From: an uncultured Candidatus Saccharibacteria bacterium
Lineage (GTDB): Bacteria; Patescibacteriota; Minisyncoccia; Phycocordibacterales; CSBR16-119
NCBI GenBank assembly: GCA_964581035.1
Contig: CAZOLO010000004.1
Location: forward strand, 1 to 63,818
Reading direction: 5' to 3'
Length of the DNA stretch: 63,818 nt
Shown in pieces: positions 4,681 through 36,031 of this stretch. The notes beneath the pieces were generated by a model. That model was not told where the DNA came from. It saw only the letters and a list, made by a program, of their open reading frames with translations, and did no database searches. Each line of letters starts with the position of its first letter. Positions within the stretch are counted from its first letter, which is position 1. Made by a program: the position numbers and the translations under genes.

Positions 4681-4741
4681 CCCCCCATTCACCTGGGGGG
4701 CACATTGCCTAAGGTAGCATCCATCGGCACAAGCCCGTAGG
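4681..4741 (+). ncRNA. Candidate structured RNA element: two adjacent GC-rich hairpins in the 311-nt leader of the glycan operon
   Basis: CCCCCC-ATTCACCT-GGGGGG (4681-4700) and GCCTAAGG...CCCGTAGGC (4707-4741) form a GC-rich island in AT-rich non-coding DNA. No T-run follows, so this is not a simple terminator. Confidence 0.25.
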
Positions 4742-4927
4742 CTATATCAGTGATTTATAAATCGTATCTGGTAAAAAAACAGTTTGCTTTTATAAATGCG
4801 CTACACAAAATCCTTATTTAATTGTCGGCTATCTTGTCTAATTTCAGTATATCAGATATTGGTTTAATGTAAAATTTATGGTTAATTTGCTTGAGTTTAT
4901 ACTTTGGAAGTACTATAGTGTCTGTAT

Positions 4928-5869: not shown

Positions 5870-5933
5870 AAAACATGTTTTTTGTATTATTCAATATCTG
5901 TCAGAATTACAACAAAAGAGTTACACTAGTATT

Positions 5934-6899: not shown

Positions 6900-6905
6900 C
6901 TTATT

Positions 6906-9057: not shown

Positions 9058-9063
9058 TTTGAT

Positions 9064-9843: not shown

Positions 9844-9866
9844 AATATGAAATTTTTTAAAAAAAT

Positions 9867-11861: not shown

Positions 11862-11906
11862 AATGTTTTTTTGTCAAGGAGGACAATACTCTTAATTTTT
11901 GGTAGG

Positions 11907-14900: not shown

Positions 14901-15335
14901 GATCTATGTGAAGGGGATTGGGTTCACTTTTTAGGAAGTGATGACATTCTGTATTCAAATGACACCTTGAGTAAAGTTGTAAAAAATATCTCGTCCGACT
15001 TGGATGTTGTATATGGAAATGTTGTGTGGGGGAACAGCGGCAAGGTTTACGATGGAGCATTTGATAAAATTAAGTTATCTCAGAAAAACATTTGCCACCA
15101 AGCCATGTTCACCAGAAAAGATTTATTTAAAAAGATTGGAAAATTCAATAAAAAATATACAGCTACAGCTGATTGGGAATTTAATATGAGATGGTTTGGT
15201 AGAGAAGACGTTAAAAGTAGATATTTGGATATTATTATTGCGAAATATTGCACAGAGGGATTTTCCTCAAAAAACGAAGACCTAATAATGATAAAGGATC
15301 ATGAAGAAATCGTAAAAAAATATCTATCGATATGA
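11907..15335 (+). CDS. Giant multidomain glycan-assembly protein: class I SAM methyltransferase, ~230-aa coiled coil, WbsX-like domain, GT2 domain
   Basis: N-terminal VIVELGSYKGTSFF...LLHIDGLHTYEAV...VVLFHDI. Heptad-rich K/E/L region at nt ~12553-13260. FAIYFPQFHFIEEN...NSWNEWGEQMAIEP (WbsX-type). ISIITPTFNSGETL...IIDKMSTDNT...GSDD (GT2). Start uncertain (ATG 11907 or 11916; TTG 11871). Confidence 0.85.
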   Translation: MIFMKWRYFKPVFSYQESFDDGASAWSGHRYFAYDLIRNIKPEVIVELGSYKGTSFFSMCQAVKDDLYLSKGLFPVDAWVGDEHTGFYDSSIYLDFIKIKDKHYDQLPIKPIKKTFDESVGLFEDNSIDLLHIDGLHTYEAVKHDFELWLPKMKQDGVVLFHDIKVKEGDFGVYQFWGEIKNDYFSLEFDHSFGLGVLFLKDFDNSILRDGEELKMHYSFSHEMNNILSIEQKEREMIEHRSKFLGKIDFLEKSISDYYEEKEKLEGQFIRIKEEKNQLEIELLSLREKVGVFGSRINRMSEDIALKEKEMAGKDIDLAIKISEKEMLISQLEKQREVFFNEYQDIQKELISSVGLINKKDLILKNKEDEILAILKKHEKDLEMVNLSKVSEIKNRDEIIENLNKDLNNKRESISLVEQQLDLSNREIDSLNNSIISYQEIVARMQASSFWKIRRVYLNAKWAITNPYGFLKKYLLNRLPGYPQIYWAITNPIKYYKKYHKRFLITKSLELGNREEKVELSSVFFESANDYIEEMLKQYKHNKSDYKNIFKKVEPFAIYFPQFHFIEENRKSFYEGYHDMINLAHAKDVNPNIESPLSSPLGMYDLSENRNIIPIQIETAKAYGFKGFGVYYYWFSENSSTGNNMLMKDVVDQFFIKDNDGFEIFFIYANESWSDNVSFNQNLSDTVIRNKYNETSIKKNIKNLIPYFKNKNYKKVNNKPVFFIYHSWEMTDKEIKIFQKIGDSMLKEEGFSGLELVINSNKKKYKENVNYVHNPNYKTKEVSSFMFQEKGVNYIDYKKYFEDYISRSFSKENDILSVFYNFDNTIRLFFHENRSQHLTKTLNNNIESFKKFIKMQLSKYSKRSGVSKIFLVNSWNEWGEQMAIEPSEESGFRLLNAWREALMNSFATESGPQKEERLNQWHPKISIITPTFNSGETLEDCIKSIVGQSYKNIEHVIIDKMSTDNTLDIINKYKKKYKHIKVFSQNDSGIYDAMNIGLDLCEGDWVHFLGSDDILYSNDTLSKVVKNISSDLDVVYGNVVWGNSGKVYDGAFDKIKLSQKNICHQAMFTRKDLFKKIGKFNKKYTATADWEFNMRWFGREDVKSRYLDIIIAKYCTEGFSSKNEDLIMIKDHEEIVKKYLSI

Positions 15336-17158
15336 AAAAATTCTCAATTATAATCCCTGCATTTAAGGGTAAATATCTGAAGACGGCAATAGATTCTGTA
15401 CTCAACCAGTCATATTCTGATTTTGAGCTGGTTGTTTATAACGATGGTTCTCCAGATGATATTTCTAGAATCGTTAAATCCTATAATGATCATCGAATAC
15501 AGTATTATAGCGGTGGCGATAATATTGGTAAAGATTTCCCAACAAGAGCATGGAATAAGGCTGTTGGTATGTCAGTTGGTGAATATATATGTCTTTTGGG
15601 GGACGATGATTTTTTGTCTTTAAATTTTCTAGAGGAGATTTCAGCTTTAATTTTGAAGTATCCAGAGAATAATATATTTAGATCTAAGGTGAATAGAGTT
15701 GACGAAAAAGGAGAAATTATATTTTTTGGAGAGACACTTCCTGAGGAGGAGTCTTGGATGGAATTCCTTTTCCAAAGAAACGTGAATAAGAGAATGCAGT
15801 CCACTTGTGAATTCGTCTTAAAGAAGGAGGCCCTTATTGCTGCTGGGGGTTATAAAGATTTTCCCAGAGCATGTGGTAGTGATGATGTGGCATATTTGCT
15901 TATCGCAAGAGATAGGGGGGTTGTATCAACAAATGGAACCATTGCATATTGGAGAAAACACCATCTAAATATTTCAGATAATGATAGCGATGATATGAAT
16001 GCTTATAAAGTTAGATTTTTTATGGAATGGGAAAGACAATTTTTTAATAGAGAATTCTTTTTGAATCTTCCAAGAAAGGTAGAAGAAAAAGATCTTGTGG
16101 CAGATTTACAAAATAAAATTATGGATCTAGAATGGCAAATTAAAGGTCAAGGGCTTCATTTTGGTTCAAATGGCTGCTTGTCTTTTTTAAAAACTAAATT
16201 TTTATCAAGAAGATTTTTTAAGGGTTCTAGTCTAAAAAATAAAAAAATCTATAAGAAAAAAGTTCTATATATAGGTCACTCTTATCACAACAAGACAAAA
16301 TCAAACAGTTTTTTCATGGACTATTTGAAGGATTTTTATGATGTTGAAGTTTTATCTGATGAATCTTGGATGGGGGGTACATATCCAGATCTAAAGTTTG
16401 TCGATAGTTCTTATCATGCAGTTATATTTTGGCAAAATTTACCTGGACCAGAAATTGTAAAAAAAATAAATAATAATAATCTTGTATTTTTCCCAATGTA
16501 CGATGCCGTGGTGGGGTCTGAATTTAATTTTGATGATAGATATAAGCAAATGAAGATTATAAACTTTTCTAAGAAATCTCATGAAGAATTTTCCTCAAGA
16601 GGATTTAATTCTATGTATATTCAGTATTTCCCGGAGCCCAGAGATTTTACTCCAGGTAAAAGTAACAAAGCTTTCTTTTGGCAGAGAATAAGTAAAATTA
16701 ATGTTAATAATATTATTAATTTGTTTGGTAGTCAGAAAATTCAGATTTACTTACATAAGGCTGTAGATCCAGGGAATGAATTTGTGGAGCCAAAGAAAAA
16801 GGATATCAATAGCTTTAACTTTGTAATCTCTGATTGGTTTGGCTCTAAAGAAGAGATGGTTGATTATATTGAAGATCTAGGTATATACGTTGCCCCTAGA
16901 GAATTTGAAGGTATAGGAATGTCATTTTTGGAAGCCATGTCTATGGGTAAAGCTGTTATTGCTGTAGATAAGCCTACTATGAATGAATATATAGAAAATA
17001 ACAAGAACGGATACTTATATGATCTAGACAATATAAAGAATATAGATTTTTCTAATATAGAAGAAATTCAAAAGAATGCACACTCTTTTATTAAAAAGGG
17101 TTATAATATATGGATGAAGAGGCGCTTTAAGATTATAGATTTTATAGAAAATAAATAA
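15332..17158 (+). CDS. Dual-domain glycosyltransferase (N-terminal GT2, C-terminal GT4/GT-B)
   Basis: FSIIIPAFKGKYLKTAIDSVLNQSY...YNDGSPDD...LGDDD, then C-terminal EGIGMSFLEAMSMGKAVIA...NGYLY (EX7E-type). ATGA overlap with the upstream gene. Confidence 0.85.
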   Translation: MKKFSIIIPAFKGKYLKTAIDSVLNQSYSDFELVVYNDGSPDDISRIVKSYNDHRIQYYSGGDNIGKDFPTRAWNKAVGMSVGEYICLLGDDDFLSLNFLEEISALILKYPENNIFRSKVNRVDEKGEIIFFGETLPEEESWMEFLFQRNVNKRMQSTCEFVLKKEALIAAGGYKDFPRACGSDDVAYLLIARDRGVVSTNGTIAYWRKHHLNISDNDSDDMNAYKVRFFMEWERQFFNREFFLNLPRKVEEKDLVADLQNKIMDLEWQIKGQGLHFGSNGCLSFLKTKFLSRRFFKGSSLKNKKIYKKKVLYIGHSYHNKTKSNSFFMDYLKDFYDVEVLSDESWMGGTYPDLKFVDSSYHAVIFWQNLPGPEIVKKINNNNLVFFPMYDAVVGSEFNFDDRYKQMKIINFSKKSHEEFSSRGFNSMYIQYFPEPRDFTPGKSNKAFFWQRISKINVNNIINLFGSQKIQIYLHKAVDPGNEFVEPKKKDINSFNFVISDWFGSKEEMVDYIEDLGIYVAPREFEGIGMSFLEAMSMGKAVIAVDKPTMNEYIENNKNGYLYDLDNIKNIDFSNIEEIQKNAHSFIKKGYNIWMKRRFKIIDFIENK

Positions 17159-17195
17159 GCCTCTGACTAAATTAAAAACTAGAAATATTTAAATT

Positions 17196-18056
17196 TTGAA
17201 TAACGAAGATCAAAATAATCAAGAATTAGAGTTTGTACCATCTGGTCATTATTTTTCGCCGTCTCCATCTATTAAAGAAATAATATCTAAAGAAAATACA
17301 ATATGGGGTGAAATGCCAAAAGAGATCCCTGGGATAAACCTAAATACAGATGGTCAGTTTGACCTACTGGATAAGTTAGAAGTTTTCTATAAAGATATAC
17401 CCTTTGAGGATCAAAAAAAAGATGGCCTGCGTTATTACTTCGACAATAATGCTTATGGTTATTCGGATGCAATCTTTTTATACTTTATGATTAGATATCT
17501 TAGACCTAAGAGGGTTATAGAAGTAGGGTCGGGATTTTCTTCGTGTGTTATTTTAGACACCAATGAGTTATTTTTTGATTCAAAGATAAACGTTTCTTTC
17601 ATAGAGCCTTATCCTGAGCTTTTGAAGTCTTTGATTAAAGAATCAGATCTTTTGAATAACATGCTCCATTCATCTGGAGTACAAGATGTTCCGCTATCTT
17701 TTTTTGAGTCCTTAGAGTCTGGTGATATATTATTTATAGACTCTACACATGTCTCAAAGATTGGAAGTGATGTGAATTATATAATACACAAAGTACTCCC
17801 AGTTCTTGCATCTGGAGTTCATGTTCATTTTCATGATATCTTTTACCCATTTGAATACCCTAAAGAGTGGGTTATAGAAGAAAGGAGATTTTGGAATGAG
17901 CAATACTTATTAAGGGCTTTTTTAGAATTCAACTCAGAATATGAGATAGTAATCTTTAACACTTATTTGGAGTATTTATTCAGATCTAAATTAGAAGAAA
18001 GGTTTCCTCTTATTTTTAAGAATCCTGGTGGAAGTATCTGGATAAAAAGAAAATAG
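17196..18056 (+). CDS. Class I SAM-dependent methyltransferase (same subtype as the N-terminus of the 11907-15335 protein)
   Basis: PSGHYFSP N-terminal motif, VIEVGSGFSSCV, ILFIDSTHVSKIGSDV, VHVHFHDIFYPFEYP. TTG start at 17196; there is no in-frame ATG upstream of the conserved N-terminus. Confidence 0.75.
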   Translation: MNNEDQNNQELEFVPSGHYFSPSPSIKEIISKENTIWGEMPKEIPGINLNTDGQFDLLDKLEVFYKDIPFEDQKKDGLRYYFDNNAYGYSDAIFLYFMIRYLRPKRVIEVGSGFSSCVILDTNELFFDSKINVSFIEPYPELLKSLIKESDLLNNMLHSSGVQDVPLSFFESLESGDILFIDSTHVSKIGSDVNYIIHKVLPVLASGVHVHFHDIFYPFEYPKEWVIEERRFWNEQYLLRAFLEFNSEYEIVIFNTYLEYLFRSKLEERFPLIFKNPGGSIWIKRK

Positions 18057-18066
18057 CCAATAAAAA

Positions 18067-19698: not shown

Positions 19699-19700
19699 AT

Positions 19701-20426
19701 ATGGATATAAGGTTACACAAAAAATATCAAGAACTTCAAGAGTCACATTGGTGGTTTATGGTTAGAGATAATCTATTAATGGATCTAGTCTTTAAGAATA
19801 TAAAGAAAGGATCATTAGTGATGGATTTTGGGTGTAATTACGGACATGCTGTAAAACTCTTGGGCGACAAAGGGTATGAATCTTTTGGAGTTGATGTTTC
19901 AAGAGAAGCTGTAAATTATGGTAGATCAATTAATATAAATGACATATCTCTGATATCAGAAAAGGATATTCAAAATAATTCTCTAGACGCAGTAATATCT
20001 ATGGATGTTTTGGAGCATATAGATAATGACAAGGAAACACTTGAATATATTTGGTCAAAATTAAAGCCTGGAGGATTAATGATTGTTACGGTTCCAGCTT
20101 TTATGTTTCTGTGGGGTGTTCAGGATGAGATTTCTCATCATTTTAGGAGGTATAAGCTTTCAGAGCTTTTATATTTAGCTGGGGAAGTAGGAGATTTTGA
20201 GATTGTTAAAAAGACATATTTTAATTCGTTTCTTTTTATGCCCGTTGCTATTATTAGAGTTTTATCTAAGTTGTTTAAATTAAAAAGTAGGAATTCAGAT
20301 CTTGACATTAATAGTGTTTTTCTTAATAAGATATTTTTCAAAATCTTTGATTTAGAGAGAAGGTTACTAAAATATATTAATTTTCCTTTTGGGGTCTCTG
20401 CCTTACTGGTTTTAAGAAAAAGGTAA
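19701..20426 (+). CDS. Class I SAM-dependent methyltransferase (Methyltransf_11/23-like)
   Basis: VMDFGCNYGH (motif I), AVISMDVLEHIDND, LKPGGLMIVTVP. Confidence 0.8.
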   Translation: MDIRLHKKYQELQESHWWFMVRDNLLMDLVFKNIKKGSLVMDFGCNYGHAVKLLGDKGYESFGVDVSREAVNYGRSININDISLISEKDIQNNSLDAVISMDVLEHIDNDKETLEYIWSKLKPGGLMIVTVPAFMFLWGVQDEISHHFRRYKLSELLYLAGEVGDFEIVKKTYFNSFLFMPVAIIRVLSKLFKLKSRNSDLDINSVFLNKIFFKIFDLERRLLKYINFPFGVSALLVLRKR

Positions 20427-21293
20427 AAATCTTCGAGGTTTTATACTAAGATCTTTTTCTAGGTTAGGGCTCATTAAATCTTTTTTGCAAACAAACCTTT
20501 GTAATTGGTCGGGGGTACCTATGTTAAAAAATCTACTTAGAAAAATAAGTGGTATTTTAATAAATAGAAATGGGATTGGTAGAAGAAGCCTACTTTTATT
20601 TTCATTTTTGCACATACGAACGAGGACCTCTTTCAATTTCAAGTTTTCTGGTCCACAGACTGTGTAGGTTTTATTATATGTTTTAGGATTTTCTATTGTA
20701 TTAACTATTATTCTTAACACATCTTCTTTGTGTATAGGGGCCAGATTATTATTTAATTTGGCTGGGTAGGGGATTATAAAGCTTCTTTTAATCAGTTTCT
20801 GCAAACTATTCAATCCTTCCTTTCCTATAAAGTTTTCTTCATAAACTTCTCCAACTCTTAGTATTGTGTGGTTTATTCCATATTTTTTGATTGCCTCTTC
20901 AGCTATTTTCTTAGATTCACCATATGACCCACAGCAAGAACCAATAGCTCTTGTACTTATAAATATAAAGTGATATACCCCAGCACTTTTCCCAAAATTT
21001 ATAAGCCTTTGTGTTCCAATATTATTAATTCTTGTATAATTTTGTGGGTCTTTTGAGTGGGTTATTGCAGCAAGGTGTAAAATTATATCGATTTTAGGGA
21101 TTTCTTTTTCCCAAATTTCAGGCTCTTCAATAGATCCATTTACTATGTTGATGCCTCTCGTGTCTATATCTATACTATTTTTATGGATCAGTAAAAAAAT
21201 TTCATAGGTCTCTCTGATCATGTTAGTCAGATCTCTTCCTAGGAAGCTCGAGGCTCCAGTTATTAGTATCTTTTTTTTAGTTAATTCTGTCAT
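20412..21293 (-). CDS. NAD-dependent epimerase/dehydratase family SDR
   Basis: ILITGASSFLGRDL Rossmann motif; YGESKKIAE (YxxxK). ATGA coupling with the upstream GT2 gene. Confidence 0.8.
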   Translation of the reverse strand: MTELTKKKILITGASSFLGRDLTNMIRETYEIFLLIHKNSIDIDTRGINIVNGSIEEPEIWEKEIPKIDIILHLAAITHSKDPQNYTRINNIGTQRLINFGKSAGVYHFIFISTRAIGSCCGSYGESKKIAEEAIKKYGINHTILRVGEVYEENFIGKEGLNSLQKLIKRSFIIPYPAKLNNNLAPIHKEDVLRIIVNTIENPKTYNKTYTVCGPENLKLKEVLVRMCKNENKSRLLLPIPFLFIKIPLIFLSRFFNIGTPDQLQRFVCKKDLMSPNLEKDLSIKPRRFLPFS

Positions 21294-22015
21294 TTTTTAA
21301 ACTCCTTTAATCTTGATATTATTATGTTTTTGATAAATTCAAGATTGGTCTTAAATGTTATAGAAGAAGAGTAATCTTTATTTTTATAGAAACAAGTTTC
21401 TACTTCACCTATTTTGAATTTGTACCTCCTGGCTTTGATCATTATTTCACTATCAATAAACCAATCATCAGATTCTAAATGAAGTTTTTCGAATGCCTCT
21501 TTTGTAAATATCTTTGGTTTGCCATTGATGTCCCCTGCCACTATTCCAGGAAAAATTAGATTCATAATTGCGTTAAATATTCTTGATATAATCTTTCTAT
21601 AAAATCCATCTTCTCTAGATACTCTTTTTGTTTTACATAAGTCTAATTTTTCATTAATTAATTTTAGATAAACAAGAGGTATATCTTTTGCGGGCATCTG
21701 ACCGTCTCCATCAATTACACATATAGTTTTACCTTTAGCTAATCTAAGACCTGATCTCATGTCCCAACCCATGGCTTGTTTACTGTCTGTTTTTTCTTCT
21801 ATAATAGATAAAGTGTTAGGATTATTTTCTGATATTTTTTTAACTACTATTGGAGTGATATCGCCACTTTCTGGTCTGTAATTCCCAACAATTATTATCT
21901 CGTAACTTAGATTTTTTTCTTCCAGAGCATTTACAACCTTTTTGTGGAAGGAAAATAAAGAATCACCAGCTTTGTAGCCTAAGATTACAACTGAGATGTC
22001 TTTTTGTTTTTCCAT
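21290..22015 (-). CDS. GT2 glycosyltransferase, soluble polyprenyl-phosphate sugar synthase-like (ArnC/DPM1-like)
   Basis: ISVVILGYKAGDSL, IIIVGNY and VIDGDGQMPAKDI motifs. Start set to the ATG at 22015 (MEKQKDISVV). Confidence 0.75.
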   Translation of the reverse strand: MEKQKDISVVILGYKAGDSLFSFHKKVVNALEEKNLSYEIIIVGNYRPESGDITPIVVKKISENNPNTLSIIEEKTDSKQAMGWDMRSGLRLAKGKTICVIDGDGQMPAKDIPLVYLKLINEKLDLCKTKRVSREDGFYRKIISRIFNAIMNLIFPGIVAGDINGKPKIFTKEAFEKLHLESDDWFIDSEIMIKARRYKFKIGEVETCFYKNKDYSSSITFKTNLEFIKNIIISRLKEFKK

Positions 22016-22069
22016 GAAGATTGATATGTGTCCAACTTGTCTAGGCATTATACTACAATACCAAACTCT

Positions 22070-22102
22070 ATCAATTACTTTGATAAATATACGTGGTATA
22101 AT
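22070..22102 (+). promoter_or_regulatory. Candidate promoter with extended -10 (TGgTATAAT) ending 6 nt before the ATG at 22109, implying a leaderless mRNA
   Basis: TTACTT, 16-nt spacer, TATAAT, gccgac, ATG, all read from the sequence. Confidence 0.3.
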
Positions 22103-22108
22103 GCCGAC

Positions 22109-22456
22109 ATGAAAATACTTTTATTGATAATTGCTTATCTTATTTTCAACACTGCTGGTCTATCTCTTTTGAAGATGAGCACTCTTAACCTAAAGCTGGC
22201 TTCATATTCAGATTATTTAGAACTATTTACTAAACCAGAATTTATATTAGGTTTTCTATTGTATGCAGCAAGTTTTCTTGCTTGGGTTGTCATGCTTAGC
22301 AAAAAAGACATTTCATACATATATCCTATTGTAATTGGTTTGAGTTATATCGTCATTATGATTACAGCAATTATTCTCTTTAGAGATAGCTTTACCTTGA
22401 ACAAGGCTTTAGGTTCGACTCTTATTGGATTAGGTGTTATTTTTATATCTTTATAA
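22109..22456 (+). CDS. Small 4-TM membrane protein (115 aa), SMR/EamA-like, ArnE/ArnF-type candidate flippase
   Basis: Four hydrophobic helices. C-terminal ...FRDSFTLNKALGSTLIGLGVIFISL resembles SMR/DMT small transporters. Lies between a polyprenyl-P GT and a GT-C gene. Confidence 0.55.
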   Translation: MKILLLIIAYLIFNTAGLSLLKMSTLNLKLASYSDYLELFTKPEFILGFLLYAASFLAWVVMLSKKDISYIYPIVIGLSYIVIMITAIILFRDSFTLNKALGSTLIGLGVIFISL

Positions 22457-22457
22457 C

Positions 22458-23027
22458 ATGATAGGAAAAAATGTAAGAAAATCTTTATATATATTTTTAG
22501 GGGTAATTTTTGCTTTGACTATTTGGTCTTATGCGAATGGTTTTTTAAAATACTCTTTTTGGATTTCGTCTATGGATAAGGCAAAAATATGTTTAGCTTT
22601 TTTGGATAAAGATATGGTTGATTACTGTGACAGTGGCTTTTCAAAGATTATTAGAAAAATGCCAAATTCCATTAATGCTGAGTTCTTTTTGAATGACTTA
22701 GACTTTGCTATAGGTAGTGTAGATGATCTCTTTTTCTCAAAAGAAAAAGGACTTTTTGTGCAGGGTTGGGCAGCAAACCCATTTGGTAAAAAACCATTTG
22801 ATTATATTCTTGTCAGGACCATAGACAAAGAAGGGGTGGTGATATTTTCAATAAGCCCTTCTGATTATTCGCGTAAAGATGTCTCTGATTATTTAAATAA
22901 CAAAGACTATGATTTATATGGATGGTCTGTTTCTTTGAATATTGACTCTGAAAGAATGGAAGATTTTGATATAGAGATTTGGGGAATAGATACTTCTAAA
23001 TTTTCAGCCAACAGGCTGAGAATTTAG
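22458..23027 (+). CDS. Membrane-anchored hypothetical protein (189 aa, N-terminal TM helix)
   Basis: ORF with ATG at 22458, 1 nt after the upstream stop. TM helix SLYIFLGVIFALTIWSY. Confidence 0.55.
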   Translation: MIGKNVRKSLYIFLGVIFALTIWSYANGFLKYSFWISSMDKAKICLAFLDKDMVDYCDSGFSKIIRKMPNSINAEFFLNDLDFAIGSVDDLFFSKEKGLFVQGWAANPFGKKPFDYILVRTIDKEGVVIFSISPSDYSRKDVSDYLNNKDYDLYGWSVSLNIDSERMEDFDIEIWGIDTSKFSANRLRI

Positions 23028-23155
23028 ATTTTATATCTCTTGTGCCTTCCTGAATATCACAAGAGAAAGTCGCATTCAATTTTTATTGAAAGGTAAGTTG
23101 CTATTTAAAATAGAAATACTTTTGTAGTCACACCCTTAATTAGCCCTCAATAAAT

Positions 23156-24628
23156 TCAAAATTTATATACCCAGATATTTTCTCCTGATTCACTTTCTGA
23201 ATGATAAACTTCCCTTATCACTGGGTGATTAGAAATTAGCCCAAAAACATCTCCAAGCCGGCTTCCCGCAAGTTCATCTATTACTATGTATCCATGGTTC
23301 TCTCTTGTTATTTTAAATAAATCGTAGGATGTTTTAATAACTGGCGCGTTCGTGTAGAAATCATTATTTGATCCAGACGCCAAACTTGCCTCTGTAGGCT
23401 TGCCGGTAAGAGATATTGGCTGGAGCATCCCCGGGTCTCCAGTATAAATTTTTGTTAGATGTGCGTAAGGAGAAATAATCAAATCTCCTGTTTCTTTGTT
23501 TTCTAAAATATAGGAATAAGCCTTATTGAAGTCAGGTTGAGGTGATCCTTTTTTAAGAATAGAGTCTGATGTGTATTTTAATATTCCGCTGTAGAAAAAG
23601 AATCCTCCTATAAGGAAAAAAGCTAAGGGCCATAATACAAAAGAAATCTTTTCTTTTGTTATTTTGTTTAAAGCAAAAAAGGGTGTAAATGCTCCATAGG
23701 CTGATGTTATAACAAGAAACGGAAGAAGCGGTACAAGATACCGATAATGAAGAAGTGGCCCATAAGCAGTTATAATTATATAAGAGAAAAGAATAGAGCT
23801 AGAGAGAAGTGTTCCGGAGATCAGCTTCTTTTCTCTAAATAAAGCGACAGTGAAGCCAGTAATTGACAGAACTGACAGAATCATAAATTCATCAAAGAAG
23901 AATTTATTGTAATAGTCTAGAAAATTATAAATTACAAGATCTCTTAAATACGGCCAAGCAATAAAGTATCCTAATGCGAAAATTATAGGTATCAATAATA
24001 CATACTTCCAATTTATTTTCTTCATGTTTGTTAATAACCAGACACTAAGTGTGAACAAAAAACCAGGAAGGAAAACAAGAGCTAGTGCATGGGCAAAAAA
24101 AGCAAAAGCAAAAGTTATCGATGATATAAAGAACCTGTAAATTTTGTTAGTTTTTATAAAAATCAGAAACTGGTCAAAAGATAGAAGTAAAAAGAATTGC
24201 AAAATAGTATATCCTCTTGCTTGCCTTGACCATGCTATTTCCCAAGGTAAAAAAGCGATAGAGGCTGTCGCTGTTAGAGCAATCCAGTCATTATTAAATA
24301 GTCTTTTTGTGAATATAAAAGTTAACAGAATTGACAGGAGCCCAAAGAAGGCTGCAGGAACTCTGGTTGACCATGGGCTAAGCGGGTCAAATCCAAAAAG
24401 CTTCATTGACCCAGCTACGATATAAGATGTAAGAGGTTGATTCTTGTAGACATTTCCAGAATCTAATAGAGGATAACCATGATCTTGGATGGCCAGAGAA
24501 GCATTTATTGTATAACCTTCATCTATCCACAAAGACTGATATCCCAAGTTTTTGAAACGCAAAAAACCACCCAGTAGCAATATTACAATTAGAATTATTA
24601 AAATTTTCTTTTCAAGAGATTTGAACAT
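23156..24628 (-). CDS. GT-C fold glycosyltransferase (PMT_2/ArnT, GT39/GT83-like)
   Basis: 490 aa with ~11 TM helices. First-loop LWIDEGYTINASLAI (DE motif). C-terminal soluble domain. Confidence 0.85.
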   Translation of the reverse strand: MFKSLEKKILIILIVILLLGGFLRFKNLGYQSLWIDEGYTINASLAIQDHGYPLLDSGNVYKNQPLTSYIVAGSMKLFGFDPLSPWSTRVPAAFFGLLSILLTFIFTKRLFNNDWIALTATASIAFLPWEIAWSRQARGYTILQFFLLLSFDQFLIFIKTNKIYRFFISSITFAFAFFAHALALVFLPGFLFTLSVWLLTNMKKINWKYVLLIPIIFALGYFIAWPYLRDLVIYNFLDYYNKFFFDEFMILSVLSITGFTVALFREKKLISGTLLSSSILFSYIIITAYGPLLHYRYLVPLLPFLVITSAYGAFTPFFALNKITKEKISFVLWPLAFFLIGGFFFYSGILKYTSDSILKKGSPQPDFNKAYSYILENKETGDLIISPYAHLTKIYTGDPGMLQPISLTGKPTEASLASGSNNDFYTNAPVIKTSYDLFKITRENHGYIVIDELAGSRLGDVFGLISNHPVIREVYHSESESGENIWVYKF

Positions 24629-24657
24629 TTTTATTCGTCAGTTAATCTGATAAATAG

Positions 24658-24884
24658 TATACTATACATGTGAAAAAACTAATTTCTCTCCTAAAAAAAC
24701 TAAAACGACATCTGCCAAAACTTGCAGTAATTATTGCTATTGCTGGACTATCTACAGCAGGTGTAACCTATGCCCAATTTGCTAGACAAACAGGTTCTAT
24801 CGGTTGGGGGTATGGTTATGGTTATGGATATGGTCTTGGTTATGGTTGGGATTCTGGTTTGAGTGCGGGGTATAGGAATGTGGT
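24658..24884 (+). repeat. Copy 1 of a 227-bp perfect direct repeat (12 nt upstream plus the first 72 codons of surface paralog 1)
   Basis: Identical base for base to 27255-27481 on by-eye comparison (offset 2597 nt). Confidence 0.9.
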
Positions 24885-27216
24885 GGAGGGAGATAGTGGT
24901 TGGGAATATGTTGGACTTAATCAATTTTCTACAAATGTAACTGCGTATCATACAATAGATTTTAATACTGAAGATGTTCCGTATGTTGCATATCTCCAAG
25001 GTGCCGGGACCGAGATTGTGGTCCAGTATTTTAATAGCGGAAGTTTGGCGTGGGTTGATTTACCTGATATAGAATTCACCACAACAGCTGACGCAGTTGC
25101 TTTTGCGATATTTGAAGACACTCCCTATATTGCTTACTCAGACGATGGTAATGGTGGTGGGTCTATAGTTGTTATGTCTTATGACGGTTCAGATTGGAAT
25201 CTAGTTGGTCCCGCATATTTTGTGGCGGGCCAAGTTGATAACATATCGTTGGCATTTGATTCCACAGGGGTTCCGTACGTTGCTTATCAAGATGAGCTAT
25301 TCAGTGATAAAACATCTGTGCAGAAGTTTGTGAGTGGAGCTTGGTATTATGTAGGATCAACGTTTATCTCTGGGCAGGCAGAATATCAAAGAATTGCATT
25401 GGATTCTAACGATGTTCCATACGTTGCTTACATTGATTATGATAATGGTCAGGAGGTGACAGTGAAAAAGTATAATGGTTCTTCCTGGGAAACAGTTGGC
25501 CTCACTGGTTTTACAGATACTTCTGTTGCGTACTTGGATCTAGTTATTGGTTCAGATAATCAGCCTTATGTTCTATATAATAATTTTATTAATGGAAGTC
25601 GTGCTGCTGTGATGAAGTATGACGGTTCTTCTTGGGGTTATGTTGGAGGAAATGGTTTTTCGCAGGTTAGCAGTAGTTATCACTCGCTTGCAATAGACTC
25701 AGATGATAATTTGTATGCAGCGTATAGCGACAGCCAGGAAAGCAATAGGATAAGCGTGATGAAGTATGATGGCTCATCATGGGATTATGTAGATGAGGCT
25801 GGTATCTCAGAAGGAAGTGCAACTTGGCCGTCTGTAAATATAAATTCTTCTAATGTTCCATATGTCTCATACGCAGATGATGCAGACTTAGCAGGGAAGA
25901 CGAGTGTTAAGACATACCTCACCACAGAATCTTCAACCCCAGGTAATCAATATGCCTACGGCTATGGCTACGGTTACATGAATCCAAGCTATATATCCAG
26001 CTCACAAATATCATGGGACTCATCTTTTGAAGCATATCGGATAACTTCTTCAGCTGTTGGTCAGCCAATCGTAAACGCTGGTATTCTCATTCCAAATACT
26101 TCAAACTCTGCTAGTTCTACATCGGCAGAATTTATGTTCAAAGTTACTGCCGCTTCAGATGGATTGCATGGCTTCTTATTAAATCAAGGAACAACGCTTG
26201 TAACAGGAGGGTCATTCGATCTCGCAGATCTAAGCTTTACAGATATTTCAAGTGCCTCTATCTCTGGGCAAGACTTCCTTGGAGGATTTAACTTTGGACT
26301 TTCTGAAGACATGACTTCAAGTGAATCAATTAATCTATATATTTACGTCGGCTCACAATACGATGGAGAAACTTTGAACGTATACCATCAATCTCCAAGT
26401 GATTTAGACTGGAGCCTTCTTACAACATGTGAGGTTGGGAACTCTGTTGCTGTTCCAAGTGGATATTGCTACTTTTCAGCTACCTCTTTCTCTTCCTTCG
26501 CCGCAACCACTCCAACAACCACAGAAGAAACCGGAGGTGGAAGTAATTCAGGAAGTGGCGGAGGAGGATATCCAGATGGCTACTTTGATGATGTGTCTGA
26601 TCCAAACACAGACCCTGCGCCCGAAGAAGAAACATCATCTACTCAAGAACCACAAACCTGTCTTCCATACATAAATTCATATATTAAGTTAAACACAAAC
26701 AACAACTCAGAAGATGTAACTAAACTTGAAACATTCCTAAACACTTACGAAGGAGAAAGTCTTTCAGTAAATGGTATTTATGAAATACCAGACTACCAAG
26801 CAGTAATCAGATTCCAAGAAAAATACTTTGATGAAGTTCTGACACCATGGGGATTTCTTACCAAAGGAACAGGTTATGTTCATAAAACAACTAAAGCTCA
26901 AATCAACAAGCTTCACTGTGAAAGCCAAGGTTTGACTTGGGAAGAAGATGTTTTCATTAACACAGAGACAATCATAAAAGACGTAGTACCTAAGAAGCCA
27001 AAAGTAAATGTAAAAGAGGAACCTAAACAAGTTGAAGAAATTAAAGAGCCTATTGCGATTGATGATCTTCCACTTATACAAGTAATTGAGAAAGAGCCAG
27101 AACCAGTCATACAGAAACCAGCACCTCAAACAGTCCAACCAGAACCAGTTAATCAATGCAACAAAGGTCGATTCCTTTGTTGGCTATGTAATATATTTAC
27201 AAGTCTTTTTAAGTAG
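24670..27216 (+). CDS. Large secreted/cell-surface protein, paralog 1 (848 aa)
   Basis: Domain order: signal/anchor, Gly-Tyr block, about seven propeller-like repeats, conserved C-module, Thr/Gly linker, PG_binding_1-like domain. GTG start. Signal-like LAVIIAIAGLSTAGVTYAQF, then QFARQTGSIGWGYGYGYGYGLGYGWDSGLSAGYR. Repeats of ~48 aa (..D.N.VPYVAY.D...G...TV.KY.GSSW..VG). YGYGYGYM, GGGGYPDGYFDDV. C-terminal EDVTKLETFLNTYEGESLSVNGIYEIPDYQAVIRFQEKY. Confidence 0.85.
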   Translation: MKKLISLLKKLKRHLPKLAVIIAIAGLSTAGVTYAQFARQTGSIGWGYGYGYGYGLGYGWDSGLSAGYRNVVEGDSGWEYVGLNQFSTNVTAYHTIDFNTEDVPYVAYLQGAGTEIVVQYFNSGSLAWVDLPDIEFTTTADAVAFAIFEDTPYIAYSDDGNGGGSIVVMSYDGSDWNLVGPAYFVAGQVDNISLAFDSTGVPYVAYQDELFSDKTSVQKFVSGAWYYVGSTFISGQAEYQRIALDSNDVPYVAYIDYDNGQEVTVKKYNGSSWETVGLTGFTDTSVAYLDLVIGSDNQPYVLYNNFINGSRAAVMKYDGSSWGYVGGNGFSQVSSSYHSLAIDSDDNLYAAYSDSQESNRISVMKYDGSSWDYVDEAGISEGSATWPSVNINSSNVPYVSYADDADLAGKTSVKTYLTTESSTPGNQYAYGYGYGYMNPSYISSSQISWDSSFEAYRITSSAVGQPIVNAGILIPNTSNSASSTSAEFMFKVTAASDGLHGFLLNQGTTLVTGGSFDLADLSFTDISSASISGQDFLGGFNFGLSEDMTSSESINLYIYVGSQYDGETLNVYHQSPSDLDWSLLTTCEVGNSVAVPSGYCYFSATSFSSFAATTPTTTEETGGGSNSGSGGGGYPDGYFDDVSDPNTDPAPEEETSSTQEPQTCLPYINSYIKLNTNNNSEDVTKLETFLNTYEGESLSVNGIYEIPDYQAVIRFQEKYFDEVLTPWGFLTKGTGYVHKTTKAQINKLHCESQGLTWEEDVFINTETIIKDVVPKKPKVNVKEEPKQVEEIKEPIAIDDLPLIQVIEKEPEPVIQKPAPQTVQPEPVNQCNKGRFLCWLCNIFTSLFK

Positions 27217-27224
27217 GGGTGTTT

Positions 27225-27252
27225 AAAAACCAGATTAATATCTGGTTTTTTT
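27225..27252 (+). terminator. Terminator after paralog 1 (AAAAACCAGA-loop-TCTGGTTTTTTT)
   Basis: Hairpin plus T-run. A near-identical hairpin follows paralog 3. Confidence 0.7.
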
Positions 27253-27254
27253 GA

Positions 27255-27481
27255 TATACTATACATGTGAAAAAACTAATTTCTCTCCTAAAAAAACTAA
27301 AACGACATCTGCCAAAACTTGCAGTAATTATTGCTATTGCTGGACTATCTACAGCAGGTGTAACCTATGCCCAATTTGCTAGACAAACAGGTTCTATCGG
27401 TTGGGGGTATGGTTATGGTTATGGATATGGTCTTGGTTATGGTTGGGATTCTGGTTTGAGTGCGGGGTATAGGAATGTGGT
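27255..27481 (+). repeat. Copy 2 of the 227-bp perfect direct repeat
   Basis: See 24658-24884. Confidence 0.9.
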
Positions 27482-29531
27482 TACCACAAGCGGTTCTTCA
27501 TCTTGGTCAAAACTTGAACAGGCAGAATTTACTGACGGGGCGGCAAAATATACAGATGTTGCAATTGCTCCAGACGGTACAACTTATATAGCTTACAGTG
27601 ACATGTCTTACACTGGTGCTTTGACTGTTGAGAAATATGTAAATGGCGCATGGACTTCGATAGGAACCGCAATTGCAGGAGGGGCCTCAATCTCCGAGAT
27701 TTCTATTGCGTTTAATAACTTTGGTACCCCTTACGTTTCTTTTAACAATGGTGGAGATTTAAGCGTCATGTACTACACCGGTGGAACTTCATGGAGTTAT
27801 GCTTCACCTTCAGATATTACTGGAGCAGCAACGGTGTATGTTTCAGATATGACTTTTGACAATACTAGTAATATGCCTAGTGTTGCATATAGAGACAGTA
27901 CTGGGGGGCTTTATGTCGCAACCTGGGATGGTGCTGGTGACTGGACTATTATTGGCGGAACATTTCTAACCGCTGATTCAAACAGCGACACTGTTAGTTT
28001 AGCTTTTGACTCAAATGACGTTCCTTATGTTGCTTATGCTGCCAGTCCATACGGTTATACCACTATTCAAAAATACTCAGAAGGATCTTGGTCTGTCGTT
28101 GGAGGGACATCTATCTCCGGATCTTATTCAACTTTTGTAGATCTTGTTATAGATTCAAATGATAATCTTTATATTGCTACTCATGATGGTGCGAGCGCTG
28201 TAGCAGTCTGGACTTCAACAGGAGGTTCCTGGGCTCGTATCTCTAGCCCGAGTACCTTTGATTCAAATACCCAGTATCCTTCTATTACAATTGATTATGA
28301 AGATAATGTTTATCTTGCCTACACTAATACAGCATTTCGTTTGTCAGTCCAAAAATACAGTGGCTCTGGAACAGATTGGGAGTATGTAGCCTCTAACATT
28401 TCAGCTCAACTACCTGACCATATCTCTCTTGCTGCTAGTCCAGATACAAGTAGTATTTATGTTGGATATCAGGACGGGGTACCTCTTGGCGGGGCTACTG
28501 TTCAAGTGTATGAGTCTACAGAGTCCACTTCTGACGCTTCTTCGTATCTTTATGGCTACGGCTACGGCTACATGAACCCAAACTCTACCTCTGGTACAGA
28601 AATATCATGGGATCCGTCTATCACCGCATTTCGCGTCTCTTCATCGGCGATAGGTCAACCAATTGTAGACGCTGGAATCCTTGTTCCAAATTCAAACGAT
28701 TCATCAAGTGCAACCTCTGCAGAATTTCTGTTTGACGTTGTTGCCCTATCAGATGATTTGAATAGCGCGGTTATTTTTGACGGTATAATTCTATCTGCCA
28801 GCAGCTCTTTCGATCTCGCAGATCTAAACTTTACGGACCTTTCAAGCGCCTCTATCTCTGGGCAAGATTTTCTTGGTGGTTTTAGTTTTGGAAATGCATC
28901 AGAGGATCTAACTTCTAATGAAGCCATCACTCTTTATCTAAACGTCGGCTCACAATATGACGGAGAAACTCTCAATGTTTACCATCTTTCACCAAGCGCT
29001 TCAGACTGGAGCATCCTTACAACATGTGAAGTCGGTCTAGAGACAAGCGGTTACTGTGTATTCACCGCAACCTCTTTCTCATCATTCGCCGCAACAACAT
29101 CAACAGCCACAGAAGAAACCGGGGGTGGTAGTGACTCAGGTAATAGCGGAAGTGGTGGAGGAGGATATCCAGATGGTTACTTTGATGATGTGGTTGATCA
29201 AAATACAGACCCTGCACCAACAGAAGAAATACCATATACTCAAGAACCTAACACAAACCCGGTAACCCCAACTTATTCAAACAATTCAAACACTGGAAAC
29301 ATTCAAACAACAGAAACTCCACAGATAGGAGTTAATTTCCCTGATGATTTAATTATCACTTCTACTTCAACAGAAGAAACATCAGATATTACAAATCCTT
29401 CACAAGATAAGGATGTTCAAATCAACAACAGTCAATGTGGAAAGTGGTGTTGGTTCTGGATTGGATGGGGAAGTGGAGCTGTATTTTGGTTGGTTGTTCA
29501 TCTTATTTTTGAAAGAAGGAGAAATTATTAA
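27267..29531 (+). CDS. Large cell-surface protein, paralog 2 (754 aa), same architecture with a C-terminal Trp-rich TM anchor
   Basis: First 72 aa are identical to paralog 1. Propeller-like repeats, YGYGYGYM, GGGGYPDGYFDDV. C-terminal WCWFWIGWGSGAVFWLVVHLIF-ERRRNY. Confidence 0.85.
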   Translation: MKKLISLLKKLKRHLPKLAVIIAIAGLSTAGVTYAQFARQTGSIGWGYGYGYGYGLGYGWDSGLSAGYRNVVTTSGSSSWSKLEQAEFTDGAAKYTDVAIAPDGTTYIAYSDMSYTGALTVEKYVNGAWTSIGTAIAGGASISEISIAFNNFGTPYVSFNNGGDLSVMYYTGGTSWSYASPSDITGAATVYVSDMTFDNTSNMPSVAYRDSTGGLYVATWDGAGDWTIIGGTFLTADSNSDTVSLAFDSNDVPYVAYAASPYGYTTIQKYSEGSWSVVGGTSISGSYSTFVDLVIDSNDNLYIATHDGASAVAVWTSTGGSWARISSPSTFDSNTQYPSITIDYEDNVYLAYTNTAFRLSVQKYSGSGTDWEYVASNISAQLPDHISLAASPDTSSIYVGYQDGVPLGGATVQVYESTESTSDASSYLYGYGYGYMNPNSTSGTEISWDPSITAFRVSSSAIGQPIVDAGILVPNSNDSSSATSAEFLFDVVALSDDLNSAVIFDGIILSASSSFDLADLNFTDLSSASISGQDFLGGFSFGNASEDLTSNEAITLYLNVGSQYDGETLNVYHLSPSASDWSILTTCEVGLETSGYCVFTATSFSSFAATTSTATEETGGGSDSGNSGSGGGGYPDGYFDDVVDQNTDPAPTEEIPYTQEPNTNPVTPTYSNNSNTGNIQTTETPQIGVNFPDDLIITSTSTEETSDITNPSQDKDVQINNSQCGKWCWFWIGWGSGAVFWLVVHLIFERRRNY

Positions 29532-29585
29532 AAGATTTCCCCGTTCTCGAAAACATATATTATTCATCTCTGGTAAAATATAATC

Positions 29586-36030: not shown

Positions 36031-36031
36031 C

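Follow-up and report, generated by a model that had tools for sequence, protein, structure and literature searches.

A PMT_2-type glycosyltransferase encoded head-to-head with GY-tagged secreted proteins in Patescibacteria: a candidate system for surface-protein modification

Gene content of the locus

We analyzed a stretch of 63,818 nucleotides (hereafter, the window; contig CAZOLO010000004.1 of GenBank assembly GCA_964581035.1) from an uncultured Candidatus Saccharibacteria bacterium, a member of the Patescibacteria. It encodes a membrane glycosyltransferase (GT) of the GT-C class, here denoted GT-C1, located head-to-head with the first of three paralogous surface-protein genes, an arrangement that we found to recur widely and that we tentatively interpret as a protein glycosylation system. 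An earlier note on this DNA had combined GT-C1 with a soluble family 2 GT (GT2b), a short-chain dehydrogenase/reductase (SDR), a small multidrug resistance (SMR)-like protein and a membrane-anchored protein into a module that would make a lipid-linked sugar, flip it and transfer it to Thr/Ser-rich linkers of the surface proteins. All the open reading frames (ORFs) it listed are present where it placed them and belong to the families it named, and exactly 41 nt separate the ATG of GT-C1 (24628) from the GTG of surface paralog 1 (24670). The notion of a glycosylation module survives in part: GT-C1 is of the type that uses lipid-linked sugars and has an outward-facing catalytic loop, but the proposed trio is not conserved. 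Two features that went unused in that proposal are the glycan biosynthesis locus at 4928-20426 and the presence of two (GY)n blocks in each surface protein. Positions 4928-24628 form a ~20-kb glycan cassette of variable content between conserved end genes, and the surface-protein genes lie just beyond it (Table 1).

Table 1. Features of the glycan cassette and the adjacent surface-protein genes, with coordinates in the window
Feature	Coordinates	Strand	Description
GT2a	4928..5869	+	313 aa, membrane-anchored, PgfS/ArnC/GtrB-like candidate polyprenyl-phosphate sugar synthase
Nucleotide-sugar epimerase/dehydratase	5934..6899	+	GalE-like, paired with GT2a; Epimerase E=5e-59; GalE model E=2e-53
Variable core of glycan locus	6906..17158	+	assigned with Pfam, as are the next six rows
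GT1	6906-8030	+	
GT2	8011-9057	+	
Wzm	9064-9843	+	
Wzt	9867-11861	+	with Wzt_C
Methyltransferase+WbsX+GT2 protein	11871-15335	+	1154 aa
GT2+GT1 fusion	15332-17158	+	
Methyltransferase	17196..18056	+	Methyltransf_24 family, Pfam E=1.5e-7
GT-C2	18067..19698	+	distant GT-C-fold membrane protein, 543 aa, ~8-11 transmembrane helices
S-adenosylmethionine-dependent methyltransferase	19701..20426	+	Methyltransf_23/11; part of methyltransferase/SDR/GT2b unit
SDR	20412..21293	-	extended, epimerase/reductase-like; Epimerase/RmlD/NmrA families; coupled to GT2b
GT2b	21290..22015	-	soluble 241-aa GT2, second candidate lipid-sugar synthase; Pfam Glycos_transf_2 E=3e-7
SMR/DMT-type small membrane protein	22109..22456	+	115 aa, four transmembrane helices; candidate ArnE/F-like flippase or GacJ-like GT2b partner
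N-terminally anchored protein	22458..23027	+	189 aa, one transmembrane helix; coupled to the SMR-like gene, starting 1 nt after its stop codon
Terminator-like hairpin	22995..23028		15-bp stem, between the convergent SMR-like/anchored-protein unit and GT-C1; only such site in 20300-25000
GT-C1	23156..24628	-	490 aa, PMT_2-type, GT-C_A fold, outward WIDEGY (D36-E37) loop, C-terminal extracytoplasmic domain
Divergent intergenic region, GT-C1/surface paralog 1	24629..24669		41 nt; head-to-head layout recurs in 35 loci
Surface paralog 1	24670..27216	+	signal peptide, GY tag residues 36-69 (nt 24775-24876), beta-propeller, GY block 2 residues 430-436
Surface paralog 1, continued			beta-sandwich domain X, Thr-rich linker residues 613-625 (nt 26506-26544), PG-binding-like region
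Surface paralog 2	27267..29531	+	GY tag nt 27372-27473, linker residues 610-622 (nt 29094-29132), C-terminal transmembrane anchor
Surface paralog 3	29586..32066	+	GY tag nt 29691-29792, linker residues 601-615 (nt 31386-31430), PG_binding_1, C-terminal transmembrane anchor
Peptide QFARQTGSIGWGYGYGYGYGLGYGWDSGLSAGYR			candidate acceptor peptide for GT-C1, separate from the linker peptide

GT-C1 homologs are frequently paired with tagged secreted proteins

We fetched 78 loci, one genome per species, each containing a GT-C1 homolog and up to 10 kb of flanking sequence per side, and compared all window proteins with the ORFs of these loci. The N-terminal Gly-Tyr (GY) tag of the surface paralogs was generalized to a motif in which a hydrophobic 12-mer is followed by GYG[G/Y/S] inside the first 110 residues, and its distribution was assessed in 77 of the loci (L010 was not analyzable). 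The motif was found in 48 of 1,063 genes, and 41 of these 48 carriers are immediate neighbors of the GT-C gene, 35 of them head-to-head and 6 just downstream, compared with 7 carriers among the 922 non-adjacent genes (Fisher odds ratio 54, p=1.3e-31), so that adjacency by chance was rejected (p=1e-31). Under a stricter (GY)3 motif, ~19 of 21 carriers adjoin GT-C. The earlier note had linked GT-C1 to the surface proteins by adjacency and had named a lack of linkage elsewhere as grounds for giving up the idea; the link is now backed by synteny across many Patescibacteria, with tag genes adjoining GT-C in 41 of the 77 loci, many of the negative ones being short contigs, archaeal loci or near misses of the motif. 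Adjacency tracks the GT-C clades, and 7 of 9 members of the clade that includes GT-C1 itself show the head-to-head layout.

The head-to-head neighbors are between 134 and 1056 aa long, their domains including PG_binding, propeller, Ig-like and others. They share a signal peptide followed by ...YAQFARQTG..GWGYGYGYGYGYG[W/F]D.G..AGYR and have little else in common; many also possess a second YGYGYGY block, a beta-sandwich of ~170 residues, a Ser/Thr/Gly-rich linker and variable C-terminal domains. A tag shared by otherwise diverse proteins is what a common modification or sorting signal on varied cargo would look like. In a large GT-C clade that at first seemed unlinked, the head-to-head neighbor turned out to be a small secreted protein in which the signal peptide is followed by ...[F/Y]GYGGGGG(S)n.

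In this GYGGGGG-type clade, the gene just downstream of GT-C encodes a conserved protein of ~360 aa with a single transmembrane (TM) helix and an 'NFLPFGY' motif (L016, L018, L022, L023, L027, L028, L030, L032, L040, L056 and L060; about 11450-12650, + strand), which may be a third component of the system. The L016 protein, the only one scanned, contains a ConA-like Laminin_G_3 domain (E=2.6e-5).

We also approached the linkage from the side of the tag. Exact look-up of tag proteins, blind to GT-C, gave a mixed result: with L079 and L080 included, three of eight have a head-to-head GT-C (L079, L080 and L087), and an obligate linkage was accordingly rejected. Three of the GT-C-less loci (L081, 2163-5957; L082, 3952-5845; L088, 1-3170) share an upstream set of a Wzx-type flippase and a protein of ~200 aa without known family, preceded in L081 and L088 by a 559-aa protein, likewise without known family; this recurring set may be an alternative partner system for tag proteins. 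The tag proteins of L083 and L089 have neither GT-C nor the Wzx-type set. Neighbors of 498-788 aa in L081, L083 and L088 matched neither Pfam nor the second GT-C family described below, and gave nothing significant against the GT-C profile (best E=0.04, for a 540-aa protein of L083). A search of metagenome contigs with the tag alignment produced 599 pattern matches, of which two, both GT-C-positive, were confirmed by tblastn, a small number that probably reflects the short, low-complexity query. Thus, the linkage between the tag and GT-C is frequent and highly non-random but not obligate, as expected if one enzyme serves several tagged proteins, which could apply to paralogs 2 and 3 in the window.

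The tag and the surface paralogs

The tag lies within ~10-20 residues of the signal peptide and consists of [F/W/Y]-G-Y-G followed by (GY)n or poly-Gly/Ser. Beyond the required GYG, position -1 is aromatic in 31 of 43 sequences and position -2 is Ala or Gly, with (GY)n/poly-Gly on the other side. Among hydroxyl residues, Tyr alone occurs in every tag; the search motif itself requires it, but not the aromatic and Gly flanks.

No window ORF other than the three paralogs contains (GY)n blocks. A 227-nt segment comprising 12 nt of upstream sequence, the signal peptide and the GY tag is 100% identical between paralogs 1 and 2 (24658-24884 and 27255-27481), compared with 77-86% identity for their other repeated segments, pointing to gene conversion or to a tag region under strong constraint. 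An AlphaFold2 (AF2) model of residues 1-640 of paralog 3 (predicted local distance difference test, pLDDT, 77) shows a confident beta-propeller at residues 75-410 and a beta-sandwich at residues 438-602 (pLDDT 90-96), with pLDDT <50 in the GY blocks (residues 38-72, and 413-427 with 430-434) and in the linker (residues 608-640). The tag and the linker are therefore predicted to be disordered, next to confidently modeled domains. A single folded unit made of both GY blocks, with the propeller inserted between them, is unsupported, both blocks having pLDDT <50 in a model based on a shallow alignment (20 sequences). The propeller resembles seven-bladed bacterial lectins (template-modeling score by target, TMt, 0.62-0.72), and the C-terminal regions contain PG_binding_1 (in paralog 3, with a divergent copy in paralog 1), a basic-tailed TM anchor, or both. 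The paralogs look like wall- or membrane-anchored, lectin-like adhesins.

At its C-terminus, each of the paralogs (27100-27216, 29430-29531 and 31980-32066) has a hydrophobic segment that contains Cys, is rich in Trp/Phe and bears a basic tail, for example, QCGKWCWFWIGWG...ERRRNY. Homologs P0149 and P0157 have similar ends, and this C-terminus may be an undescribed anchoring or sorting signal.

The three Thr/Ser linkers that had been proposed as O-glycosylation targets are all present (Table 1), and Ser/Thr/Gly-rich linkers after domain X recur in homologs, some of which (e.g. L007) have an acidic linker without Ser/Thr instead. By sequence comparison, the GY tag is a far more conserved candidate acceptor site than the linker.

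Family and fold of GT-C1

GT-C1 matches PMT_2 (PF13231) with 32.5 bits, above the gathering score of 26.1, as the earlier assignment had it. At E<=0.01, PMT_2 was its sole match in Pfam, with none to PMT (PF02366), PMT_4TMC or MIR, and some homologs carry a precomputed PF02366 match. The 148 homologs, which NCBI names 'glycosyltransferase family 39' (GT39), come from Paceibacteria and related groups, the closest being <=47% identical to GT-C1. The family also has archaeal members, from Methanosarcinales, ANME-2, Woesearchaeota and Methanolobus (L035, L043, L045, L049, L057, L064 and L068). Residues D36, E37, R89, W133, Q136, R138, R296 and Y297 are invariant, and the W34-I-D36-E37-G-Y segment in the first outer loop, after TM1, is invariant in 40 GT-C homologs. 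The predicted topology comprises ~11 TM helices with an N-terminus placed inside by the distribution of positive charges, an outward DE loop and, at the C-terminus, a small extracytoplasmic alpha/beta domain with a conserved SPQPDF motif.

The AF2 model of GT-C1 is confident (pLDDT 90.6, pTM 0.90). Foldseek matched it with probability 1.0 to ArnT, STT3, AglB, PglB, ALG9 and PMT, all matches being at 11-17% identity. ArnT was the best structural match (template-modeling score by query, TMq, 0.65), followed by yeast and human STT3 (0.60-0.63), AglB (0.60 for the best entry), ALG9 (0.58-0.60), PglB (0.58), DPY19 (0.50-0.51), Emb/Aft (0.43-0.51) and Pmt4 (0.48 for the best entry, with PMT entries overall at 0.35-0.48). 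A profile search of the PDB gave ArnT at E=5.5e-5, Pmt1 at 4e-3 and TMEM260 at 0.02, so that by both approaches the closest relative is ArnT rather than the PMTs. In NCBIfam, GT-C1 matched no ArnT model and produced a sole match, below its cut-off, to TIGR03663 (Agl23-type), and the window ORFs scanned, which cover positions up to ~49 kb, included no ArnA/B/D genes. Patescibacteria are generally described as monoderm and lacking lipid A/lipopolysaccharide, and an ArnT-type acceptor is therefore unlikely.

Judging by the model, GT-C1 is a GT-C_A-class transferase with a polyprenyl-phosphate sugar as its likely donor. The acceptor class, protein or glycan, is not readable from the fold or family because the fold fits ArnT and STT3/AglB about equally, and we rejected any reading of acceptor type from sequence or fold, given that ArnT, oligosaccharyltransferases (OST), PMT, DPY19 and ALG9 score similarly at such low identity.

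A conserved GT2a/epimerase/GT-C core and a model for its function

At the opposite end of the cassette from GT-C1, GT2a matches the PgfS (E=7.5e-43) and ArnC (E=7.9e-43) models over its full length, both below the equivalog cut-offs (147 against 500 bits in the case of PgfS), and has two C-terminal TM helices, as in GtrB/ArnC-type enzymes. Orthologs of GT2a lie <=10 kb from GT-C in 36 of the 78 loci, archaeal loci included, with E-values down to 1e-154. Epimerase, GT2a and GT-C occur together in L004, L007, L034, L037, L005 and the archaeal L064 (Methanolobus). Among archaea, L064 and L068 both have a GT2a ortholog near GT-C, with the epimerase also present in L064, which suggests inter-domain transfer of this core.

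Starting from gene content, folds, topology and conserved pairing, which are observed, we infer a donor, a flippase, an acceptor and an acceptor residue as follows. The reading we favor, with a probability of roughly 45%, is Pgf/PMT-like extracytoplasmic O-glycosylation of the GY-tagged surface proteins by GT-C1. The epimerase would supply a uridine diphosphate (UDP)-sugar, and GT2a would attach the sugar derived from it to polyprenyl phosphate on the inner side of the membrane. The lipid-linked sugar would then be flipped, here possibly by the SMR-like protein and elsewhere by Wzx-type or LPG_synthase_TM-type proteins encoded in that position. While the three GY-tagged proteins are leaving the Sec channel, GT-C1 would attach the sugar to their disordered, membrane-proximal tag, held at the membrane by the signal peptide, and/or to their Ser/Thr/Gly-rich linker.

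Several observations weigh against this reading. The best structural match of GT-C1, ArnT, has a lipid acceptor, and ArnT, OST and PMT alike are only 11-17% identical to it. The characterized bacterial PMT_2 GT-Cs (GacL, GtsC, CsdD/F) have wall polysaccharides rather than proteins as their acceptors (PMC8035078). The GT-C gene always lies in or beside a glycan biosynthesis locus; one GT-C clade (L009-L017, L026) and two close relatives of GT-C1 (L002, L006) have no tag neighbor, and five of the eight tag proteins sampled blind to GT-C lack a GT-C neighbor. In 39 of 43 sequences, Ser/Thr lies near the tag, but its location varies and no Ser/Thr position is conserved, and the assignment of the SMR-like protein as flippase is weak and specific to this genome.

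A bolder proposal, which we regard as improbable, is that the N-terminal GYG is a dedicated glycosylation tag read at the membrane before signal-peptide cleavage and that GT-C1 O-glycosylates protein tyrosines. Firmicutes have surface-layer glycans attached to Tyr, which a different enzyme family makes (PMC2943079).

The variable glycan cassette and its bearing on acceptor choice

The genes between GT-C and GT2a differ among loci. The Wzm/Wzt/GT1 set of the window is also found there in L001, which additionally has a WsaF-like GT, and in L004, L002 and L006. In L005, L007, L014, L021, L034 and L037, Wzx-type (Polysacc_synt) or LPG_synthase_TM flippase-like proteins and other GTs are present instead, and in these same loci the first GT-C is followed by a second, translationally coupled PMT_2 GT-C of 700-776 aa.

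The 664-aa Wzt ATPase of the window (9867-11861, + strand) has an N-terminal extension of ~300 residues without family match, followed by the ABC domain (residues 302-433) and the Wzt_C carbohydrate-binding domain. The G+C content is 30-32% in the glycan locus (4001-24000) and 39-42% in the surface-protein genes (24001-32000), with a window average of ~36%, reflecting either a different cassette history or the compositional bias of Gly/Ser/Thr-rich proteins.

This genomic setting also accommodates a different role, which we consider unlikely but the foremost alternative: GT-C1 could decorate a wall glycan in the manner of GacL, GtsC, CsdD or GtrC, attaching a side-chain sugar from the GT2a-derived donor to the polymer that the genes in between assemble and Wzm/Wzt (elsewhere Wzx) exports, and the aromatic, Gly-rich tag could bind the decorated polymer and so retain the proteins, comparable to S-layer homology (SLH) domains on pyruvylated or galactosylated secondary cell wall polymers, or GW and choline-binding repeats on teichoic acids. 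Many loci have a variable glycan cluster between GT-C and GT2a, a layout also seen in streptococcal rhamnopolysaccharide loci, and wall glycopolymers are the acceptors of every characterized bacterial PMT_2 GT-C that PMC8035078 lists. The surface proteins have wall-binding PG_binding_1 domains and a lectin-like propeller, and retention by a decorated polymer would explain tag proteins found away from GT-C. Furthermore, motifs rich in Tyr and Trp are typical sugar-stacking elements. However, the tag of the largest clade, just [F/Y]-G-Y-G with poly-Gly/Ser, is very short for a non-covalent binding module and is predicted to be disordered, and it adjoins the signal peptide at the membrane surface, where the GT-C active site lies, rather than being located distally. 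The tight head-to-head pairing moreover holds across unrelated glycan clusters, whether of the Wzm/Wzt or the Wzx type.

The cassette further brings to mind the transfer of a complete lipid-linked glycan en bloc to the tagged proteins, as in surface layers, with GT-C1 acting as an OST or ligase similar in function to WsaB/WsfB or AglB/PglB but belonging to another family. The locus resembles the slg clusters of Geobacillus and Paenibacillus, with Wzm/Wzt, a methyltransferase-GT, the WsaF-like GT of L001 and adjacent surface genes (PMC2943079), and in fold GT-C1 is almost as close to STT3/AglB/PglB as to ArnT. S-layer glycans linked through Tyr are known (PMC2943079), and the window ORFs scanned, up to ~49 kb, include no match to Wzy_C, and thus no Wzy_C-type O-oligosaccharyltransferase (O-OTase). 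We nevertheless give en-bloc transfer little credence: the tight conservation, across domains of life, of a GtrB/ArnC/PgfS-type synthase of lipid-linked monosaccharides with GT-C points to a monosaccharide donor, GT-C1 is small (490 aa) and without the large periplasmic domain of OST-type enzymes, and neither a Bac_transf match nor any other initiating phosphoglycosyltransferase, WbaP-type included, was found among the scanned ORFs.

GT2b, the SDR and the SMR-like protein probably form a separate module with GT-C2

GT2b and the SDR gene overlap at an ATGA, implying the translational coupling that had been proposed for this pair. GT2b is indeed soluble, with no convincing TM helix, but the likeness to ArnC claimed for it is weak (NCBIfam E=6e-13, residues 2-152 only, far below the curated cut-off), as is its similarity to AglJ and PgfS. 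The best promoter-like site nearby (22074 to 22047, 11 of 12 matches) lies downstream of an alternative ATG at 22048 and thus favors the start at 22015; the promoter scan as a whole was not above background (24 sites against 21±4.8 in shuffles). The family, of ~240 aa, is highly conserved, with 60-65% identity within Patescibacteria and ~50% in Nitrospina and Omnitrophota, and in all three contexts examined (L084, L085 and L086), GT2b is followed by the same SDR. In L085, the pair adjoins a 49% identical ortholog of the methyltransferase encoded at 19701-20426 as well as two GT-C-like membrane proteins, the equivalent position in the window being held by GT-C2. Near the 78 GT-C homologs, there are no GT2b orthologs, only weak cross-matches to GT2a orthologs.

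GT-C2 was missed by Pfam and by the earlier note. As a single sequence, it matched nothing in Pfam, NCBIfam, the PDB or the GT-C1 profile, and only a comparison of family profiles detected the relationship: the GT-C2 family (548 representatives in our sequence library) aligns with the GT-C1 profile over 327 columns (hhalign probability 92%, E=7e-7). In this family, TM1 is followed by an invariant DD (residues 45-46), an RY.FP motif is shared with GT-C1, and one member matches PMT_2.

The SMR-like protein has the four hydrophobic helices and the SMR/ArnF-type similarity ascribed to it, matching ArnF at E=1.4e-8 over nearly its full length (35 bits against a cut-off of 99), TMEM234 at 1e-5 and Multi_Drug_Res at 1.6e-3, with no match in the PDB. 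None of the 78 GT-C loci contains an ortholog, the single match, a weak one, being in a Methanolobus locus; where the window has the SMR-like gene, related loci encode Wzx, LPG_synthase_TM, DUF2304 or LAB_N proteins. The 189-aa protein is membrane-anchored as described, by one N-terminal TM helix, and has no family match and no homolog in the 78 loci.

These data bear on the assembly originally proposed, in which GT2b and the SDR make the donor, the SMR-like protein flips it and GT-C1 transfers the sugar to the Thr/Ser linkers. The four genes are contiguous, GT2b and the small protein show the similarities just described, and disordered Ser/Thr-rich regions like the recurring linkers are acceptors in streptococci, where YfhO-type GT-Cs glycosylate them in surface proteins (10.1101/2024.05.05.592596). 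However, the neighborhoods of the 78 GT-C homologs contain orthologs of none of the proposed parts, be it GT2b, the SDR, the SMR-like protein or the protein with the N-terminal anchor; GT2b-SDR behaves as an independent pair beside other GT-C-like proteins, in the window beside GT-C2; a terminator-like hairpin separates the SMR unit from GT-C1; and some homologous linkers, as in L007, are acidic and devoid of Ser/Thr. We accordingly find the original assembly very doubtful.

By synteny, GT2a and the epimerase go with GT-C1, and GT2b, the SDR and the methyltransferase more likely with GT-C2. The latter genes, together with the SMR-like protein, probably form a separate lipid-linked sugar module that would add a different sugar, most likely to the glycan exported by Wzm/Wzt. 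For the SMR-like protein, two roles are conceivable: flippase for one or the other of the lipid-linked sugars, or membrane partner of the soluble GT2b in the manner of GacJ.

Comparison with known glycosylation systems

The Pgf cluster of Streptococcus mutans (PgfS, PgfE, PgfM1 and PgfM2, with the substrates Cnm/CnaB/CbpA) combines a GT-A enzyme, an epimerase, two GT-Cs and its own substrate adhesins and glycosylates disordered Ser/Thr-rich regions outside the membrane (10.1101/2024.05.05.592596; PMC5856776). The window likewise encodes a candidate GT-A synthase of undecaprenyl-phosphate-linked sugars, a GalE-type epimerase and GT-Cs with outward catalytic loops (two in the window, and two tandem PMT_2 proteins in many related loci). 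The three paralogs are its putative substrates, with disordered Ser/Thr-rich candidate acceptors next to folded domains. In contrast to Pgf, the GT-Cs are PMT_2-type rather than YfhO-type, GT2a falls far below the PgfS equivalog cut-off (147 versus 500 bits), the system is split over a 20-kb glycan locus with a Wzm/Wzt exporter in a Patescibacterium, and the candidates share an N-terminal GY tag not reported for Pgf substrates. By analogy, the window system may work like Pgf without being a member of it.

The proposed succession of GT2 synthase, flippase and GT-C is also that of GacI/J/K/L, GtsABC, CsdAB/CD/EF with CflA, CsbB/GtcA/YfhO, GtrABC and ArnC/ArnEF/ArnT. GT2a, by its predicted activity, provides the GT2 synthase, and the GT-C with an acidic loop-1 residue is present. 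GT-C1 shares the PMT_2 family with GacL, GtsC and CsdD/F (PMC8035078), and the window system, like gac, lies inside a polysaccharide locus of the ABC-transporter type. The related locus L006 also combines a soluble GT2 and a small membrane partner (GT2 and DUF2304; cf. PMC8035078). Unlike here, such multi-component glycan-decorating systems have not been reported with a GT-C head-to-head to tagged secreted proteins, and the window has no GtrA-family flippase, in contrast to, for example, GtrABC. The logic of GT2, flippase and GT-C is thus well known, and Pgf is a precedent for substrate genes within the cluster.

With the GT39 PMTs (eukaryotic PMT1-6 and actinobacterial Pmt with Ppm1), GT-C1 shares the GT-C_A fold, the Asp-Glu pair in the first outer loop and, putatively, a polyprenyl-phosphate-monosaccharide donor. 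Bacterial Pmt modifies secreted proteins during Sec export, often near the N-terminus. GT-C1 differs in lacking the PMT (PF02366) plus PMT_4TMC architecture and in being closer to ArnT than to Pmt1, and actinobacterial Pmt, unlike GT-C1, is not encoded next to its substrates. It is also distinct from ArnT (GT83), matching no ArnT equivalog and lacking ArnA/B/D companions among the scanned ORFs.

The slg loci of Geobacillus stearothermophilus and Paenibacillus alvei resemble the window in their Wzm/Wzt, the multidomain GT with a methyltransferase domain (terminating in slg) and the adjacent surface-protein gene, to which L001 adds the WsaF-like GT; Tyr-linked glycans are known in this group (PMC2943079). 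They differ in their transferase, a Wzy_C-type O-OTase (WsaB/WsfB), and in WbaP-type initiation, neither of which was found among the scanned ORFs.

Finally, compared by description rather than by sequence, TfpW of Pseudomonas aeruginosa group IV pilins is said to be a GT-C encoded beside the gene of its protein substrate and to use a lipid-linked monosaccharide donor; it reportedly differs in its polyprenyl-phosphate-arabinofuranose donor pathway and its pilin substrate. In the Falkowbacteria locus L070, a type IV pilin with a GFTLIELLVV N-terminus (9312-9785, - strand), not a GY-tag protein, lies head-to-head with the GT-C homolog, which recalls TfpW.

Implications

Literature searches on Patescibacteria with GT39, S-layer glycosylation or GT-C protein glycosylation retrieved nothing relevant, and we found no description of a PMT_2-type GT-C clade paired with 'signal peptide + GYG' secreted proteins across Patescibacteria, of a cassette bounded by that GT-C and a PgfS/ArnC-like GT2, or of the second, cryptic GT-C family. 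Members of the Patescibacteria (candidate phyla radiation) are ultra-small bacteria, many of them living attached to other cells; their biology depends on the cell surface, and there is almost no experimental knowledge of how their surface proteins are processed. The conserved pairing of GT-C with the tag would provide a sequence rule predicting modified surface proteins in hundreds of uncultured species. It would also define a compact candidate enzyme-substrate pair (one GT-C, one GT2, one epimerase and a tag of ~35 residues) for reconstitution and glycoengineering. Variation in the cassette between conserved flanks points to diversifying selection acting on surface glycans, a matter relevant to interactions with hosts and phages.

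If the acceptor is tyrosine or the tag, known GT-C activities would be extended. Specifically, were the tyrosine proposal correct, GT-C1 would be the first GT-C known to glycosylate tyrosine, within a Patescibacteria-wide tag-and-enzyme system with a logic like that of sortase/LPXTG or exosortase/PEP-CTERM. If instead GT-C1 decorates a wall glycan, the tag would represent a new type of wall-anchoring motif.

Other genes of the window

The leucyl-tRNA synthetase encoded at 41848-44673 (+ strand) is unusual in having a NUDIX hydrolase domain (Pfam E=8e-14, residues 382-498) inserted after the editing domain. Immediately downstream of the three surface paralogs, at 33853-37435 (+ strand), lie a homolog of TraD/VirD4/CedD-like coupling ATPases (725 aa, with a long Lys/Glu-rich tail) and then a secreted protein with Lamin-tail and PKD domains, a pair that may represent a DNA-uptake or conjugation-type element.

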